DNA of 64,000 nucleotides from a virus (lineage: Duplodnaviria > Caudoviricetes). Below are positions 3,679 through 63,199 of the stretch, in pieces. The number at the start of each line of letters is the position of its first letter. Positions within the stretch are counted from its first letter, which is position 1. The notes beneath the pieces were generated by a model. The model was given only the letters and a program-made list of their open reading frames with translations, was not told the origin of the DNA and made no database searches. The stretch is taken from IMG/VR virus record IMGVR_UViG_3300037067_006298, positions 1-64,000 of that record, one strand, 5' to 3'. A program made the translations under genes and the position numbers.

Positions 3679-3694
3679 TGTCTGTAATTTTAAA

Positions 3695-4279
3695 TTATAG
3701 TTTGTAATTGTATTGTTGACTGTTACTTACCCACGATCTCCGTTGTGGTTCAATCCACTCTTTCCCAATAAATTCAAAAAATTTTTCTTCCGTATCAAAT
3801 ACTGGAGGCAATGTCGGGGCAATCTTATATTCCGGTTTTATTCTCCATGTGTTTCCTTTGTGGTCACACTCTCTTTTAAGCCTTAATCCATCTGTGGTTC
3901 CCGCATAGCCCCTTCTATTCCATTGCATTGCTAATCCATGAGAATACGCAGATGATCCTGTGACTATGGCAAGGATACGTCCATAATCCGCAATTGTTGT
4001 TATATGCAATTCGATCTGAATACCGGATTCGGGATATTTAAAGCGTTTTAAACGACTCCCGTTCATCACCATCCCTTTATATCCTTCAGGGAATGCTTTT
4101 GTCATAGAGAACTCATCATAAGCCACACAGACAATATCTATGTCACCTACGTAATCTACTTCTCTTCTTACTGAACCTGCAATGGCAATGCGAGAACAAT
4201 AGGGGAGAAGATATTTACTAAATCTCCATGCCACGCTACGGGCTACTGCCAAAGGAATCTTGTTCTCTGTTGTGCTCAT
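3695..4279 (-). CDS. polX: minimal DNA polymerase X family nucleotidyltransferase
   Basis: IAGSVRR..VGDIDIV motif, TGS, C-terminal TEEKFFEFIGKEWIEPQRR thumb; 194 aa. Confidence 0.75.
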   Translation of the reverse strand: MSTTENKIPLAVARSVAWRFSKYLLPYCSRIAIAGSVRREVDYVGDIDIVCVAYDEFSMTKAFPEGYKGMVMNGSRLKRFKYPESGIQIELHITTIADYGRILAIVTGSSAYSHGLAMQWNRRGYAGTTDGLRLKRECDHKGNTWRIKPEYKIAPTLPPVFDTEEKFFEFIGKEWIEPQRRSWVSNSQQYNYKL

Positions 4280-59607: not shown

Positions 59608-59637
59608 AGTCTGTCAAAATTAATTCTTAAAATTCAA

Positions 59638-59720
59638 AATAGCAAGCCCCAGGTAACACGTGCCCGGGGCGAACTAACTATGAAAAACAAGAAAACAGTT
59701 ACCTGATCGGCGGTCAGGCG
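59638..59720 (-). ncRNA. candidate small RNA or regulatory leader
   Basis: After -7 box TACCTTTG (59724-59731): hairpin CCTGA/TCAGG, single-stranded TTTTTCATAGTTAGTT, GC hairpin GCCCCGGG/CCTGGGGC then TTGCTATTTT. Confidence 0.45.
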
Positions 59721-59761
59721 ATTCAAAGGTAATCTATTTTTGTTTCTTATTTTCACAATAT

Positions 59762-60569: not shown

Positions 60570-60980
60570 TTAGTTATTATCTTCCTCTGAATATTTGTCA
60601 AGAAAACTTAAATCTTCTTCGTTCTTGGGAACGTTTGCAAAATCTATATCATGATAACCTTTTGGATTTTCTTCCTGAATTGGGATGTCAGATACTCCAT
60701 CCGGTCTCATGTATGATATAAAATCACTTATTTGAGGTGGGTATTTATTGGTATCTATGATATGATTGATCGTTTTTTCAAATTCTAAATCAGAAAACTT
60801 GTAAAACAACAATCTTTCGAGAAGTATATCATAAAAACCCTCAGATAGCATTGGATATACTATTTTTATTCTCGCAACATTAACGATAGTTCTTTCAGGT
60901 GTTAATATTGAAGTGTTTAGAGATAACTCTTGTGAGTCCTTCTTGACTAATTCCTGTTTGTTTCCTTTTTGAGTTTCCAT
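60570..60980 (-). CDS. initiator-associated protein (helicase-loader/inhibitor-like position)
   Basis: Immediately downstream of initiator; YPPQISDF C-terminal motif. Confidence 0.4.
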   Translation of the reverse strand: METQKGNKQELVKKDSQELSLNTSILTPERTIVNVARIKIVYPMLSEGFYDILLERLLFYKFSDLEFEKTINHIIDTNKYPPQISDFISYMRPDGVSDIPIQEENPKGYHDIDFANVPKNEEDLSFLDKYSEEDNN

Positions 60981-61737
60981 TTTTGAAATATGTTTTAAGT
61001 TCGTTATATTTATTTGCGATTAAAGATAGGCTCATGTTTTCTCTTTTCCACTTATCATCAATATTCACACAGGCATTAAAAATAATTCTTAGATCGTTTA
61101 TTGTTTTTTCTTCATCTGAATCAGGTGAATTTACTTTGTACTCTTTAAGAATCATTCCTGTAAATTCTCTTTCCCTTTCCCTGTTTAATATTTTATAATC
61201 TCCATATTCCTGAACAAAGGTTTCAATTATCTGATCTAAAAAATCTGAATTTTCCCCCATGGATTTAATTCTTTCTTCTTCTTCATTCTTGTTATTCTTA
61301 TCATTCTTGTTATTATCAGGGGGGGGATGGTTTTCGATTGGTTGCTCAATGGTTTCTTCTATGGTTTCTTCTGTGGTTGCTTCGTAGTTTTTTGGGTTCT
61401 GATAGTAATCATATTTACAGATAGTTATCATAACACCTCCAAGTTGCTTCACTGTGGTTATTCGTTTGGTGTCTCGTAAGAATTTCATAGCACTCTTCGT
61501 AGCATTTTCGTTGTAAGTCTCTTTTCTCCATCCTACAAACCACTTAGTTCCTTCTCTTATATCCTCATAAGATCGAAACAATTGCCCTCTTTTAATTACA
61601 TGTCCGTTATACTTATTCTCTTTTGAATTTGCCTCCCTAAGTAGGTATGCCCAAATTTCCCTTATACACGGAGAAGCAACAGATATGTCACTTTCCTGAA
61701 TGATGCGGGGTTGTAATATGTATCCTCCCTTAATCAT
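60895..61737 (-). CDS. phage replication initiator (lambda O/DnaD-like replisome organiser)
   Basis: GYI...R.I, IW.YLL..AN, IKRGQ...S...I, ITI.KYD.YQ, low-complexity linker; start 61737 (MIKGG). Confidence 0.75.
   Translation of the reverse strand: MIKGGYILQPRIIQESDISVASPCIREIWAYLLREANSKENKYNGHVIKRGQLFRSYEDIREGTKWFVGWRKETYNENATKSAMKFLRDTKRITTVKQLGGVMITICKYDYYQNPKNYEATTEETIEETIEQPIENHPPPDNNKNDKNNKNEEEERIKSMGENSDFLDQIIETFVQEYGDYKILNREREREFTGMILKEYKVNSPDSDEEKTINDLRIIFNACVNIDDKWKRENMSLSLIANKYNELKTYFKNGNSKRKQTGISQEGLTRVISKHFNINT
61270..61390. repeat. iteron-like array and AT-rich tract within initiator gene (putative ori)
   Basis: TGGTT cores at 61328, 61339, 61350, 61362, 61374 (11-12 bp period), including ATGGTTTCTTCT twice; adjacent TTCTTGTTATT repeats. 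Confidence 0.5.
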
Positions 61738-61862
61738 TGTATGTTTACAAATAAAAGCCCCTTGACAAAACAAAAAAACAGGTAGGATCTTGCGAGGGAA
61801 CCTTTCCTGTTTATCGTCTGCCAAGGGGCAGTATCTACATTAAAATATAAATTCTTATTCAT
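61734..61862 (-). CDS. 42-aa leader peptide coupled to the initiator (absent from ORF track)
   Basis: MNKNLYFNVDTAPWQTINRKGSLARSYLFFCFVKGLLFVNIQ; TGA overlaps initiator ATG (ATGA); preceded by GAGG. Confidence 0.5.
   Translation of the reverse strand: MNKNLYFNVDTAPWQTINRKGSLARSYLFFCFVKGLLFVNIQ
61750..61829 (-). terminator. large hairpin/attenuator in initiator leader
   Basis: GCCCCTTGGCAGA/TTTGTCAAGGGGC outer stem, AAACAGG/CCTGTTT inner stem, then TTTTATTT. Confidence 0.6.
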
Positions 61863-61883
61863 TTCCTCGCTTTTAATACAGAA

Positions 61884-61914
61884 CAAATGTATAACTCTTT
61901 TTGAATAAATCAAA
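61884..61914 (-). promoter_or_regulatory. consensus Bacteroidota promoter for initiator operon
   Basis: TTTG-N19-TACATTTG. Confidence 0.7.
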
Positions 61915-61927
61915 TTTTATTTTTTAA

Positions 61928-62336
61928 ATAAAAAGAAGCAGTCGATGGTTAATAATTACTTGAATCGTGCAAAAAACGTATCAATGGTCTTTCCTTCGTG
62001 CATGACGTAACAATCTGCACAGGGTAATATCCATAAAAGTTGCTTCGGCGTGTCACTTTCCCCGTAAATAAATACCCTTGACATTGAATATGTCTGTGTA
62101 CTATTTGGGGTTTCTGGCAAGTCGCTGGAACCTATTACGGCATCGTTTGGTGTTAACGCAAACTTAGATTGATGATCACTACTTTCAGTTTCTTTGTGTT
62201 GGATTCTTTCACCATAAAATAGGTGCGTTTCGTGTTGACCGTCAATATCGGTCGTGATTACTTTTAATGTTAACATGATTTCTAATTTTTAAGTTTCTAC
62301 TAATACTGTTTCTATTTTCTGACTGCTTCTTATTAT
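61928..62336. repeat. 16-bp inverted repeat flanking one gene
   Basis: ATAAAAAGAAGCAGTC (61928-61943) vs GACTGCTTCTTATTAT (62321-62336), 15/16 complementary. Confidence 0.6.
61956..62276 (-). CDS. hypothetical protein
   Basis: 106 aa ORF between the inverted repeats. Confidence 0.6.
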   Translation of the reverse strand: MLTLKVITTDIDGQHETHLFYGERIQHKETESSDHQSKFALTPNDAVIGSSDLPETPNSTQTYSMSRVFIYGESDTPKQLLWILPCADCYVMHEGKTIDTFFARFK

Positions 62337-63199
62337 ATTTTATTTTTCATACAGAACTCGTCTATCCGATTAAAAAGTTCGATATCTTCATCGTGTAGTC
62401 TCATCCGAACACGAGCCATATTGCCCCTATCCGTCTTTGTTGTGCCCCAATAATGGGTGTATTTTCGCTTGAAATTCTGTCCTGCTTTTATCGCATCACG
62501 GTTAATAACCTTGACCTCTGATCTTAGATTATGCGCCTTAATAAGTGATGCAGCGAAGTATTGTTCGTGGAATAAGTTCTGGTGTATTATGACTGACCCG
62601 TACTTCTTAAAGAACAACTTTTGGTTCTCCGGTGCGAAGATATACTCCTCACTACACCTCCTCCACTCCTGAAAGAACTCCAAGTCATGCCCTCCACAGA
62701 TGCCACAGTTATATGCGAAGTCATGTATCGGATTATCAACAATAATTTGTGGTTTTACGGGTGCTTTATCGAAGCACGGACGGAGTAGGTTGTAGTAATG
62801 ATACCCGACTTTATCCATCGGCTCCCAGCTCTGGAAGCACAACCGGGCTTTAAGTATCTTCGGAGCGAGTGCATCCCAAAGAAACACGTCATTGTCAATA
62901 TGTACAAACGGTTCTTTTTGTTCACAGTAAGCGAGTAGTTTCCCGTATGCCCAAAAGAACCGGGACACGGATTTCATCTCGTTTAGCTTATTGGAATAAC
63001 TTGTAATTGGAAGTCCAAGAGGTTTGATCACATCAACACCCCAATCAGAAGAAATAAACTGCACCTCCTTAAAGTGTCGGGAGGCGCAGAGTATTGAGAG
63101 TGCAGTGGTAAAAAGAAAATCACTGTATTTGTTGAACCCACATCTATTGCCGAAGTCTTCATCTGGGTTAAAATATGAGAGAACTGCTTTCTTTATCAT
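62333..63199 (-). CDS. DUF6734-like, putative GT-A fold transferase
   Basis: W..GKL.AY..Q.EPFVHIDNDVFLW (DxD), NCGI.GG.D, EQY, YTH..G. Confidence 0.6.
   Translation of the reverse strand: MIKKAVLSYFNPDEDFGNRCGFNKYSDFLFTTALSILCASRHFKEVQFISSDWGVDVIKPLGLPITSYSNKLNEMKSVSRFFWAYGKLLAYCEQKEPFVHIDNDVFLWDALAPKILKARLCFQSWEPMDKVGYHYYNLLRPCFDKAPVKPQIIVDNPIHDFAYNCGICGGHDLEFFQEWRRCSEEYIFAPENQKLFFKKYGSVIIHQNLFHEQYFAASLIKAHNLRSEVKVINRDAIKAGQNFKRKYTHYWGTTKTDRGNMARVRMRLHDEDIELFNRIDEFCMKNKI

Follow-up and report, generated by a model that had tools for sequence, protein, structure and literature searches.

What decides whether the replication genes of a phage are expressed, when the region in front of them looks itself like a translated and folded control element? 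The question is raised by a leader at positions 61734-61914 of the window, that is, the whole stretch of 64,000 nucleotides analyzed here (positions 1 to 64,000 of the IMG/VR record IMGVR_UViG_3300037067_006298); all the leader elements and their coordinates belong to the minus strand. The timing and limiting of DNA replication in Bacteroidota and crAss-like phages are almost unknown and, since the Bacteroidota hosts do not use Shine-Dalgarno sites, textbook leader mechanisms are not directly transferable. Judging from comparative sequence data, we give a probability of roughly 0.5 to the leader being a cis-regulatory RNA, a translation-gated and self-masking attenuator of the four-gene replication operon. 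The initial annotation of the region had proposed a control by leader peptide and RNA structure of the kind known from plasmids. Of that proposal, the translated leader and the pseudoknot between a loop and an upstream segment stand, while the antisense countertranscript and the plasmid Rep-type initiator found no support.

The gene behind the leader (60895..61737, minus strand) codes for a DnaD-like replication protein of 280 aa and is the first of the four genes of the replication operon, which extends to about 59762 and ends in tandem terminators near 59.7 kb. Over 160 homologs of the protein are strongly conserved along their N-terminal ~140 aa, and the N-termini of these homologs (MIKGGYILQPR) place its start at the ATG at 61737; they also ruled out a TTG at 61824 that had been considered as the true start. 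Its best match was not to the RepA/RepZ family of initiators. It was to phrog_2514, a 'DnaD-like helicase loader' (E 4.8e-15), and no Pfam match was found, which argues against the plasmid-type replication initiator assumed at first. A PDB profile search using the initiator alignment gave no match either. Depending on the phage, the gene after the leader codes for one of two replication proteins that are unrelated to each other. It had been suggested as well that the phage has a plasmid-like or carrier state; no integrase, repressor or partition gene was recognized among the ten larger ORFs located between 63 and 76.7 kb and compared with PHROGs, and this part of the proposal found no support.

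Promoters of the primary sigma factor of Bacteroidota have TTTG at -33 and TAnnTTTG at -7, with some 19-21 nt between both elements. The leader starts with this arrangement. A TTTG (61911..61914) is followed after 19 nt by the -7 element TACATTTG (TAnnTTTG, 61884..61891), so that the consensus promoter claimed before is indeed present, at 61914-61884, and is of the Bacteroidota type. The full motif appears only six times on the minus strand of the 76.7-kb genome, five of them intergenic. We compared it with the leaders of other loci, which are referred to by L numbers. TAnnTTTG was located 13-15 nt upstream of the sequence that we call box1 (see below) in 7/7 homologous leaders, with diverged spacers, and the complete TTTG-N19-TAnnTTTG is common to the window, L135, L166 and L173, again over diverged spacers. 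In the leader the promoter precedes the terminator, and in the other intergenic regions of this phage the terminator precedes the promoter. The distance from the hairpin to the initiator ATG is just 12 nt, leaving no room for a further promoter. In the crAss-like phage phi14:2 it is the virion RNA polymerase, and not the host polymerase, that transcribes the replication genes early, which makes the role of a host-type promoter here uncertain.

The central part of the leader is a hairpin of 73 nt (61757..61829), predicted by folding, with the outer stem GCCCCUUG/CAAGGGGC. An inner, terminator-like hairpin was predicted within it by folding (61812-61776). Two U-tracts accompany these stems, the first one (U7GU4, 61767..61778) immediately 3' of the inner hairpin and the second one (UUUUAUUUG, 61748..61756) immediately 3' of the GC-rich outer stem. 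The long hairpin with a U-tract that had been claimed at 61750-61829 was thus recovered, that range taking in the trailing tract. The sequence features of an intrinsic terminator appear twice, as the inner stem CAGG.../...CCUG with its U7GU4 and as the outer stem with the second tract, and the hairpin looks like an intrinsic (Rho-independent) terminator, a candidate that a simple terminator scanner missed because of its loop limit of 3-8 nt. The predicted minimum free energy of the 166-nt leader was -45.9 kcal/mol (z -3.6), and its best 90-nt segment reached a z of -8.1, the top value in a set of 92 relatives. Tracts rich in U occupy the position of the first one also in L135, L166, L170, L173, L174 and L191, and tracts equivalent to the second come after the outer stem in relatives. 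The element is in no RNA-family catalog and no Rfam family matches it: a cmscan of the window region against all 4227 Rfam families gave nothing relevant at E up to 10, nor did any of 14 related loci have a relevant match with the limit set at E 1.

An upstream ORF (uORF) runs across this structure. The first AUG of the transcript, about 21 nt past the -7 box, opens a frame of 42 codons (61734..61862; ATG at 61862, TGA at 61736-61734) whose stop overlaps the initiator ATG as ATGA (61737-61734). This is the leader ORF described in the initial annotation, and the overlap is of the IncFII/IncI type. SD-like motifs were found upstream of 7 of the 79 genes of the phage versus a background of 14.5%, indicating no Shine-Dalgarno use, so that an unstructured start region likely determines initiation, by extension from what is established for Bacteroidota. 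For the same reason, and for its spacer of only 2 nt to the ATG, the GCGAGG in front of the uORF was discarded as a Shine-Dalgarno site.

An ordinary structured 5' region might suffice to explain these features. The hairpin would then be a plain terminator, or would serve to stabilize the RNA or for processing of the RNase III type, with the uORF and the loop complementarity described below as by-products. In T7 and lambda, long irregular hairpins by start codons do act as processing or stability elements. The uORF peptide itself is unconstrained: it is conserved only in the part that encodes the hairpin, and codons 2-10 differ radically among relatives; its Phe/Leu-rich C-terminal half merely reflects the reading of the U-tract, and the TGA of the ATGA is dictated by the gene, which begins with a conserved Met-Ile. 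However, a passive hairpin would not predict that the read-through frame be retained. The ORF that starts at the box-adjacent ATG extends to the start region of the initiator in 8/12 lineages versus 1.5 expected (P 1.5e-5). L172, L026, L020, L031 and L215, however, have a uORF of only 5-21 codons that stops before or inside the hairpin, so ribosome transit of the whole hairpin is not universal, a point against the attenuator. Nor would a passive hairpin predict the box at the first ATG or the covariation between loop and box over more than 12 lineages that we describe below, and we consider this explanation unlikely.

A group of phage genomes, of 72-78 kb where complete, contains homologous leaders. 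These leaders were reached by three routes, a search with the uORF peptide, a metagenome scan and the Lin1244-like gene, and the covariance model (R1) recovers the homologs L173, L191, L170 and L174. At ~130 loci of wider DnaD-like relatives the leader was not found by BLASTN or nhmmer, and it had been taken as not conserved, a conclusion overturned by the homologs found through the uORF peptide and the alternative initiator. BLASTN of the 2-kb region against the phage GenBank collection gave no match. The 27 matches of a 16-mer scan look like chance, as none went beyond 19 nt in BLASTN against the leader, and the matches of a 19-mer scan in L136, L164, L165, L167 and L168 were unrelated coding sequence. 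Conservation among the window, L135 and L166 is highest in the hairpin, where four positions vary and pairing is intact at all of them; its flanks have diverged, and the sequence 3' of it is unrelated. MAFFT/RNAalifold misaligned the diverged hairpins and predicted no structure, and a structural alignment of seven rows fitted to the covariance model was used in its place. In this alignment, whose fitting favors pairing, 171/190 cells were paired (90%) and both sides had changed in 16/28 pairs; as controls, slid partners gave 44-57% and column shuffles about 70% of paired cells. L007 and L008, from among the nearest homologs of the initiator, were uninformative for covariation because their leaders are identical.

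The apical loop of the hairpin contains a sequence, the anti-box UUCCCUCGC (61792..61800), that is complementary to the start region of the uORF. Its 5'-proximal target, box1 (GCGAGGAAA, 61862..61870), extends from -8 to +1 relative to the start of the uORF. The loop segment CCTCGC (CCUCGC in the RNA, 61797-61792) is the exact complement of GCGAGG (61870-61865), as had been pointed out before, and the extended pairing includes 8/9 positions, up to the A of the uORF ATG. With six contiguous base pairs the match of the window is the weakest in its family, and a 6-mer alone could be chance; what argues for its reality is the covariation in relatives. The same AAAAGCGAGGAAATGA box is found in L135 and L166, and the differing boxes of other lineages match their own loops. 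Five versions of box and anti-box were found in the family, namely GCGAGGAAA / UUUCCUCGC, AAGCGUGAC / GUCACGCUU, CUGUGAC / GUCACAG, AACACGUGAC / GUCACGUGUU and AAAGCACGAC / GUCGUGCUUU, with both sides covarying. The box was located between -12 and +13 nt from the first ATG in 13/14 leaders. A first count of pseudoknot patterns with 7-nt thresholds (30 observed versus 15 in shuffles) was replaced by a test of own versus swapped loci, in which the complement within the own locus had a mean length of 7.94 nt versus 5.65 +/- 0.22 in the swapped ones (P < 5e-5); matches of at least 9 nt were found in 6/16 own pairs versus 0.4% of cross pairs. The anti-box is also predicted to be accessible, its unpaired probability being 0.79 versus 0.31 for the remaining leader, with a duplex to box1 of -11 kcal/mol. 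Across leaders the values for anti-boxes were 0.66-1.0 versus 0.25-0.46 elsewhere, and the duplexes ranged from -7 to -14 kcal/mol. A covariation analysis across homologous leaders had been suggested in the initial annotation; in it, conservation across lineages goes far beyond chance for the hairpin, for the pairing of loop and box and for the read-through uORF. The match of loop and box persists in related and unrelated phages although its letters change, and the leader is therefore very likely a real switch that restricts the yield of replication protein.

Repeated short motifs next to an initiator gene suggest as well a role at the DNA level, the boxes and anti-box being protein binding sites (iterons or operators) and the inverted repeat part of an origin by the initiator gene. 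There are two to three copies of a 9-13-bp motif within 150 bp next to this gene, one copy of the element per genome, and initiator genes often adjoin origins. Against this, exactly the same box stands in front of unrelated initiators in the window and in L135 (phrog_2514 versus phrog_2562; BLASTP E 8.4), and the inverted copy always falls in the unpaired loop of the hairpin, followed by a strand-specific U-tract. Furthermore, variant copies differ by G.U-compatible transitions, the changes in the stem are of the RNA type, G.U pairs included, and the box adjoins a start codon. We consider such a DNA element very unlikely.

In the attenuator that we favor, the host-type promoter would start a transcript whose uORF crosses the terminator-like hairpin and ends at the ATG of the DnaD-like gene. 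Ribosomes loaded on the uORF during transcription would trail the polymerase and prevent the folding of the hairpin, transcription would then read on, and the initiator start, which overlaps the uORF stop, would receive the ribosome. Without a loaded ribosome, the hairpin would fold and transcription would end at the U-tracts. Once folded, in the terminated or in the full-length RNA, its loop may capture box1 and shut further ribosome loading, so that each transcript would give little initiator and the output would be set by co-transcriptional ribosome loading. That a translating ribosome blocks the formation of intrinsic terminator hairpins is a general principle (PMC5021804). The element is compact (~150 nt) and consists of well-defined parts that can be mutated (box, loop, start and stop codons of the uORF, U-tracts), which makes the gating of the replication module approachable by compensatory mutation. 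In the pyrBI and ampC attenuators of E. coli an intrinsic terminator lies within the leader ORF or right next to it, and a closely trailing ribosome suppresses termination. The likeness lies in this position of the ORF across or beside the terminator; however, no pairing of the loop to a start site is known there, and those attenuators control bacterial metabolic genes in response to known signals (UTP level for pyrBI, growth rate for ampC).

The leader resembles most the CI RNA of P4 (seqA/B/C), the c4-icd-ant system of P1 and repY/repZ of IncI, and is a member of none of them. The resemblance to the plasmids (repY-repZ of IncI-alpha/IncB and tap-repA of IncFII) includes a leader ORF coupled to the initiator by overlapping stop and start and a hairpin loop that pairs with a distant single-stranded segment as a pseudoknot. 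These two features would be expected under a strict control of this type, with a plus-strand antisense countertranscript over 61760-61870. However, the countertranscript is essential in the plasmids and none is indicated here. The opposite strand had no TAnnTTTG in any of 13 leaders and, in the window, no U-tract after the hairpin, and the sole sigma70-like match on the plus strand (61818-61846, 9/12) was no better than in shuffled sequence; the antisense RNA proposed initially, a counterpart of CopA or Inc RNA, has no support in the sequence evidence. In addition, the initiators are unrelated, and the plasmid pseudoknot activates the ribosome site of the initiator, whereas here the loop would mask the start of the leader ORF itself, its partner in the window lying 133 nt upstream of the initiator ATG; only in relatives is there a target beside the initiator start. 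Control of the strict plasmid kind appears highly improbable.

This second target, box2, is a copy of the box at the initiator start that tracks the loop. It is present in L135, L166, L170, L172, L174 and L191, and the window and L173 have the upstream copy only. Box2 departs from box1 only by changes that the loop tolerates as G.U pairs (A to G in L170 and L191, C to U in L174) and is not well explained by a purely cis model with one loop. The leader of the replication operon of P4 contains a structured RNA of the sense strand, complementary to direct repeats located up- and downstream, and the outcome is premature transcription termination upstream of the replication genes (PMC4825925). The six leaders with box2 have exactly this layout of box1, loop and box2. 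The differences are that the window has no downstream copy, that no Rfam family matches, C4/CI-type RNAs included, and that here the hairpin itself looks like an intrinsic terminator and lies inside a translated uORF, while termination in P4 is Rho-dependent. In P1/P7, c4 blocks the start region of the small ORF icd, to which ant is coupled. In their immI region c4 is a sense RNA of the same operon, and matched changes in loop and target set the specificity in related phages (PMC8198154). There, however, the regulated gene is an antirepressor and not a replication protein, and c4 is a processed tRNA-like RNA without detected homology to the leader.

These precedents suggest that the leader might act mainly in trans, as a sense-encoded 'antisense' RNA of the P4 CI or P1 c4 kind. 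The hairpin RNA, terminated or processed, would accumulate with the phage copy number and its loop would pair with box1 (and box2) on nascent leaders of any genome copy, blocking translation of the leader and the initiator and forcing termination, with copy-number feedback, late shut-off of the replication genes or superinfection immunity as the outcome. Box1, structured RNA and box2 of the six leaders mirror seqA, CI (seqB) and seqC of P4 (PMC4825925), and the G.U-compatible changes of box2 amount to a three-way covariation. Besides, the specificity core differs in close relatives with near-identical hairpin scaffolds (L170 versus L173), as expected if cross-talk matters, and a full-consensus promoter should make the short RNA abundant. 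On the other hand, box2 is missing in the window and L173, neither the C4/CI RNA family nor any other Rfam model matches, and no lysogeny genes were recognized among the ten larger ORFs mentioned above. The box is absent elsewhere in two complete relative genomes, which indicates no wider regulon. Moreover, box1 in cis should out-compete targets in trans within the terminated RNA unless the 5' part were removed, for which no processing signal is evident. We regard an action in trans as possible but doubtful; were it true, RNA-based phage immunity and copy control would extend well past P1, P4 and plasmids. More speculatively, the hairpin might be freed as an abundant small RNA acting on the start-site boxes of all genome copies. 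It would then be an RNA-only, copy-number-sensing brake of replication in a lytic crAss-like Bacteroidota phage and, as close relatives do not have the same box and loop, would give each phage its own 'immunity' against superinfection by related ones, which would take P4/P1-like RNA immunity outside Proteobacteria and temperate phages. A further parallel is IsrK of Gifsy-1, in which a promoter-proximal terminator yields two transcripts, a short RNA and a longer mRNA that reads through, the former pairing with the latter and altering the translation of a small ORF coupled to the downstream gene (PMC4825925). IsrK differs in that it activates rather than masks, has no sequence relation and belongs to an enterobacterial host.

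The same design was found without detectable similarity in at least seven other leaders (L020, L021, L026, L031, L061, L102 and L215), mostly with sigma70-type promoters. It is found at only about 10-15% of the loci encoding these initiator families, which counts against the attenuator. When the own-versus-swapped type of test was replicated on 57 more distant Lin1244-like loci, the signal was weak (P 0.016) because few of them bear any leader hairpin. The element thus recurs before two unrelated families of replication proteins and in hosts with different promoter types.

On the minus strand of the window, the stop codon of a 106-aa ORF (61956) is followed by a promoter composed of TTTG (61914-61911), a 19-nt spacer and the element TACATTTG (61891-61884). 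Thirteen nucleotides downstream of the latter is GCGAGG (61870-61865, the box), and next to it the ATG (61862) of a 42-codon leader ORF (uORF), whose TGA (61736-61734) overlaps the initiator ATG (61737) as ATGA. The uORF reads through a 73-nt hairpin (61829-61757) that has a GC-rich outer stem (GCCCCUUG/CAAGGGGC), an inner stem AAACAGG/CCUGUUU followed by U7GU4, and a second U-tract, UUUUAUUUG, directly 3' of the outer stem. The predicted fold of the 166-nt leader has an energy of -45.9 kcal/mol (z -3.6). In the apical loop, CCUCGC is fully complementary to GCGAGG; on extension, 8 of 9 positions pair and the duplex reaches the A of the AUG that starts the uORF. The overlapping leader ORF, the hairpin with its U-tract and the 6-nt loop complementarity pointed out in the initial annotation were all found in place. 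The order here is promoter, terminator-like hairpin and gene, whereas other intergenic regions of the phage show the reverse one, with the hairpin and U-tract 5' of the promoter. The distance between the hairpin and the initiator ATG is just 12 nt, and therefore the gene must be transcribed through the hairpin.

Two strains (L007 and L008, initiator protein 99% identical) had a leader identical to that of the window, relatives with 86%, 82%, 60% and 56% protein identity had different upstream sequences, and no leader similarity was detected in about 130 loci with related genes. Judged by the relatives of the DnaD-like gene alone, the leader ORF and its pairings would count as not conserved, the result that the initial annotation had named as contrary to its proposal; the true homologs of the leader, however, keep the hairpin and the loop/box pairing. 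A search with the 42-aa peptide retrieved one 48-aa protein, 74% identical, on contig L135, which has the same upstream gene as the window (DUF6734) and shares with it promoter, leader and hairpin (83% identity over 189 nt). Its downstream gene codes for a phrog_2562 'replication initiation protein' (Pfam Lin1244_N) unrelated to the window initiator (BLASTP E 8.4), and homology between the two loci ends exactly where the hairpin does on its 3' side, a mosaic junction seen on comparing window 60895-61757 with L135:3107-3628. L166 was added by a metagenome word scan, and the Lin1244-like gene used as bait provided L170/L171, L172, L173, L174 and later L191/L192, several of them on complete genomes of 72-78 kb that have terminal repeats. 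One leader is thus found with two unrelated replication proteins, DnaD-like (phrog_2514) in the window and phrog_2562/Lin1244_N in L135, L166, L170-L174 and L191. A hairpin covariance model built from the three close sequences (window, L135 and L166) matched L173 (E 1e-14), L191 (1e-12), L170 (1e-7) and L174 (4e-5), with one copy per genome. Loci with these initiators carry the design in a minority of cases, a leader hairpin of any kind being present in 16/103 and 9/57.

Four positions of the 73-nt hairpin vary when the window is compared with L135 and L166, each an exchange between Watson-Crick and G.U pairing; divergence is far greater in the promoter spacer and in the 30 nt 5' of the hairpin. 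Covariation across homologous leaders, put forward as a check in the initial annotation, was apparent both in the stems and in the lineage-specific versions of the box and its complement. In a seven-member model-fitted alignment 171 of 190 cells were paired and both sides had changed in 16 of 28 pairs, figures biased toward the structure to which the alignment was fitted, although the margin over the controls is still large: pairing fell to 44-57% when the 3' partner was shifted by 1-3 columns, and column shuffles gave 133.7 +/- 4.4 paired cells (maximum 147, n=1000).

The box adjoining the first ATG is particular to each lineage, and so is the sequence at the hairpin tip that matches it (anti-box). 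The pairs are GCGAGGAAA and UUUCCUCGC in L135 and L166, AAGCGUGAC and GUCACGCUU in L170 and L191, CUGUGAC and GUCACAG in L172, AACACGUGAC and GUCACGUGUU in L173, and AAAGCACGAC and GUCGUGCUUU in L174. From the window to the L135 loop, a single C-to-U difference extends the match from 6 to 9 bp. The same design appears in leaders without detectable sequence similarity, mostly 3' of TTGACA-type promoters, with a DnaD-like (L020, L021, L026, L031, L061, L102) or Lin1244-like (L215) gene downstream. We carried out a swap test with 16 loci that had a long hairpin and U-tract within 60 nt of the start, measuring the longest complement between the 70 nt 5' of the hairpin and the hairpin interior. The mean was 7.94 nt within the own locus versus 5.65 +/- 0.22 when swapped (P < 5e-5), and matches of at least 9 nt were found in 6/16 own pairs versus 0.4% of cross pairs; the loci were partly picked after inspection, and a purely algorithmic set gave the same picture. 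The geometry is uniform across leaders, with the box 102-145 nt and the anti-box 39-68 nt (44-68 in twelve clear cases) 5' of the initiator start, and, in 13 of 14, an ATG between -12 and +13 nt relative to the box start. Predicted box/anti-box duplex energies range from -7 to -14 kcal/mol. Because the nested fold of every leader is predicted to leave the anti-box unpaired (0.66-1.0 versus 0.25-0.46 elsewhere), the loop/box pairing is, in these models, a pseudoknot that coexists with the hairpin and does not compete with its stems. A variant design was seen 5' of another Lin1244-like gene (L194:260-400), where a loop-loop match takes the place of the box-loop one, the 5' hairpin loop GGUCGGAU being complementary to the terminator-hairpin loop AUCCGAC.

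The uORF peptide is unconserved wherever the RNA is unconserved: codons 2-10 differ radically among the window, L135 and L166, and more distant versions have unrelated sequences. In 8 of 12 lineages, versus 1.5 expected from shuffled leaders (P 1.5e-5), the ORF starting at the box-adjacent ATG extends as far as the start region of the initiator; the effective number is slightly lower, as the window and L135 are related. The uORF stop is ATGA in the window and lies 11-17 nt inside the gene in the Lin1244-type relatives. Since five lineages have a short uORF, ending 5' of or within the hairpin, the constant feature appears to be the translation start at the box, passage to the initiator start being frequent and not universal.

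At the level of sequence, these comparisons establish the leader anatomy and show that selection has acted to keep the hairpin, the loop/box pairing and, in most lineages, a uORF that reads through; all of this makes a passive hairpin unlikely. We propose, with a probability of about 0.5, that the leader is a cis self-masking attenuator. The hairpin would stop transcription unless a ribosome loaded at the uORF trails the polymerase, and this ribosome would be passed on to the overlapping initiator start. The loop of the folded hairpin would then mask the uORF start, blocking later ribosome loading. Such a mechanism fits a host whose initiation needs an open, A-rich start region.

A second copy of the box (box2) is located directly 5' of the initiator ATG in L135, L166, L170, L172, L174 and L191, and is absent from the window and L173; in two complete relatives the box is confined to the leader. 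The differences of box2 from the first copy are A to G or C to U, and since they preserve a G.U pair with the loop, they favour recognition of RNA over DNA and make a DNA-level site unlikely. Box2 and the fast change of specificity among relatives sharing the scaffold are not accounted for by the cis model; an additional action of the folded leader RNA in trans, like that of P4 CI RNA on seqA and seqC (PMC4825925) and of P1/P7 c4 RNA (PMC8198154), would explain both. That the leader is mainly a trans-acting RNA seems to us clearly less probable than the cis attenuator.

The cis attenuator can be compared with known systems. The plasmid likeness proposed in the initial annotation holds for the leader-peptide coupling of IncI repY/repZ and IncFII tap/repA, and does not extend to the rest: a countertranscript signal was not found in the leader, the initiator is outside the Rep family and the pseudoknot target is different, so that a true IncFII/IncI system with a countertranscript is unlikely. 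With pyrBI and ampC the likeness is ribosome-sensitive attenuation, and with P4 CI, P1 c4 and IsrK a sense-encoded antisense RNA in a phage leader. By analogy, the element would work like a blend of these three kinds and, for the same reasons and because Rfam gave no match, is a member of none. Our literature search found no description of it.

The virus record is complete (76,666 bp, direct terminal repeats), the window covering its first 64 kb, and all window ORFs of at least 150 aa are on the minus strand. In the whole genome, SD-like motifs are depleted before genes (7/79 versus a background of 14.5% of random 15-mers), and the full TTTG-N17-21-TAnnTTTG motif occurs six times on the coding strand, five of them intergenic. 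A host belonging to the Bacteroidota is very likely, given the TTTG/TAnnTTTG type of promoters, the lack of SD enrichment and the relatives of the downstream protein encoded by Draconibacterium and Bacteroidales genomes. In the crAss-like phage phi14:2, the virion polymerase transcribes the replication module.

The 280-aa product of the downstream gene matches phrog_2514 'DnaD-like helicase loader' (E 4.8e-15), with no match in Pfam or PDB. It has more than 160 homologs, with the N-terminal ~140 residues highly conserved, and their N-termini (MI[KR]GGY...) fix the start at ATG 61737. The gene is the first of a four-gene operon, in which another product weakly matches a helicase loader (phrog_2289); tandem terminators near 59.7 kb end the operon. 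In that region (59608-59761, minus strand) the order is a -7 box (59731), a tandem pair of hairpins with U-tracts, a second -7 box (59622) and the next gene, an arrangement that we read as a double terminator at the end of the replication operon, followed by a promoter. In L135, an HNH endonuclease gene (3693-4196; phrog_119, E 8e-16) is found 3' of the initiator, without counterpart there in the window. In L009 (1-290) and the P0004 contig, whose DnaD-like proteins are 82-86% identical, a 62-aa gene takes the place of the leader; judged solely by its sequence, it is helix-turn-helix-like. The motif ACAAATGTTAAATGGA lies in L009 5' of both this gene and the replication gene.

Upstream of the leader, the 106-aa ORF (61956-62276, minus strand), whose product had no match in Pfam or PHROG, is inside a segment of ~412 bp (61914-62347) that L007 and L008, the 99%-identical strains, do not have. 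Direct repeats of 11 bp (AAAAATAAAAT, 62347-62337 and 61924-61914) and inverted repeats of 10 bp (AGAAGCAGTC, 62330-62321; GACTGCTTCT, 61943-61934) flank the segment, and the motif at its 3' end, GACTGCTTCTTTT, recurs in L191, again 5' of the promoter. The whole resembles a small gene cassette of a swappable or mobile kind.
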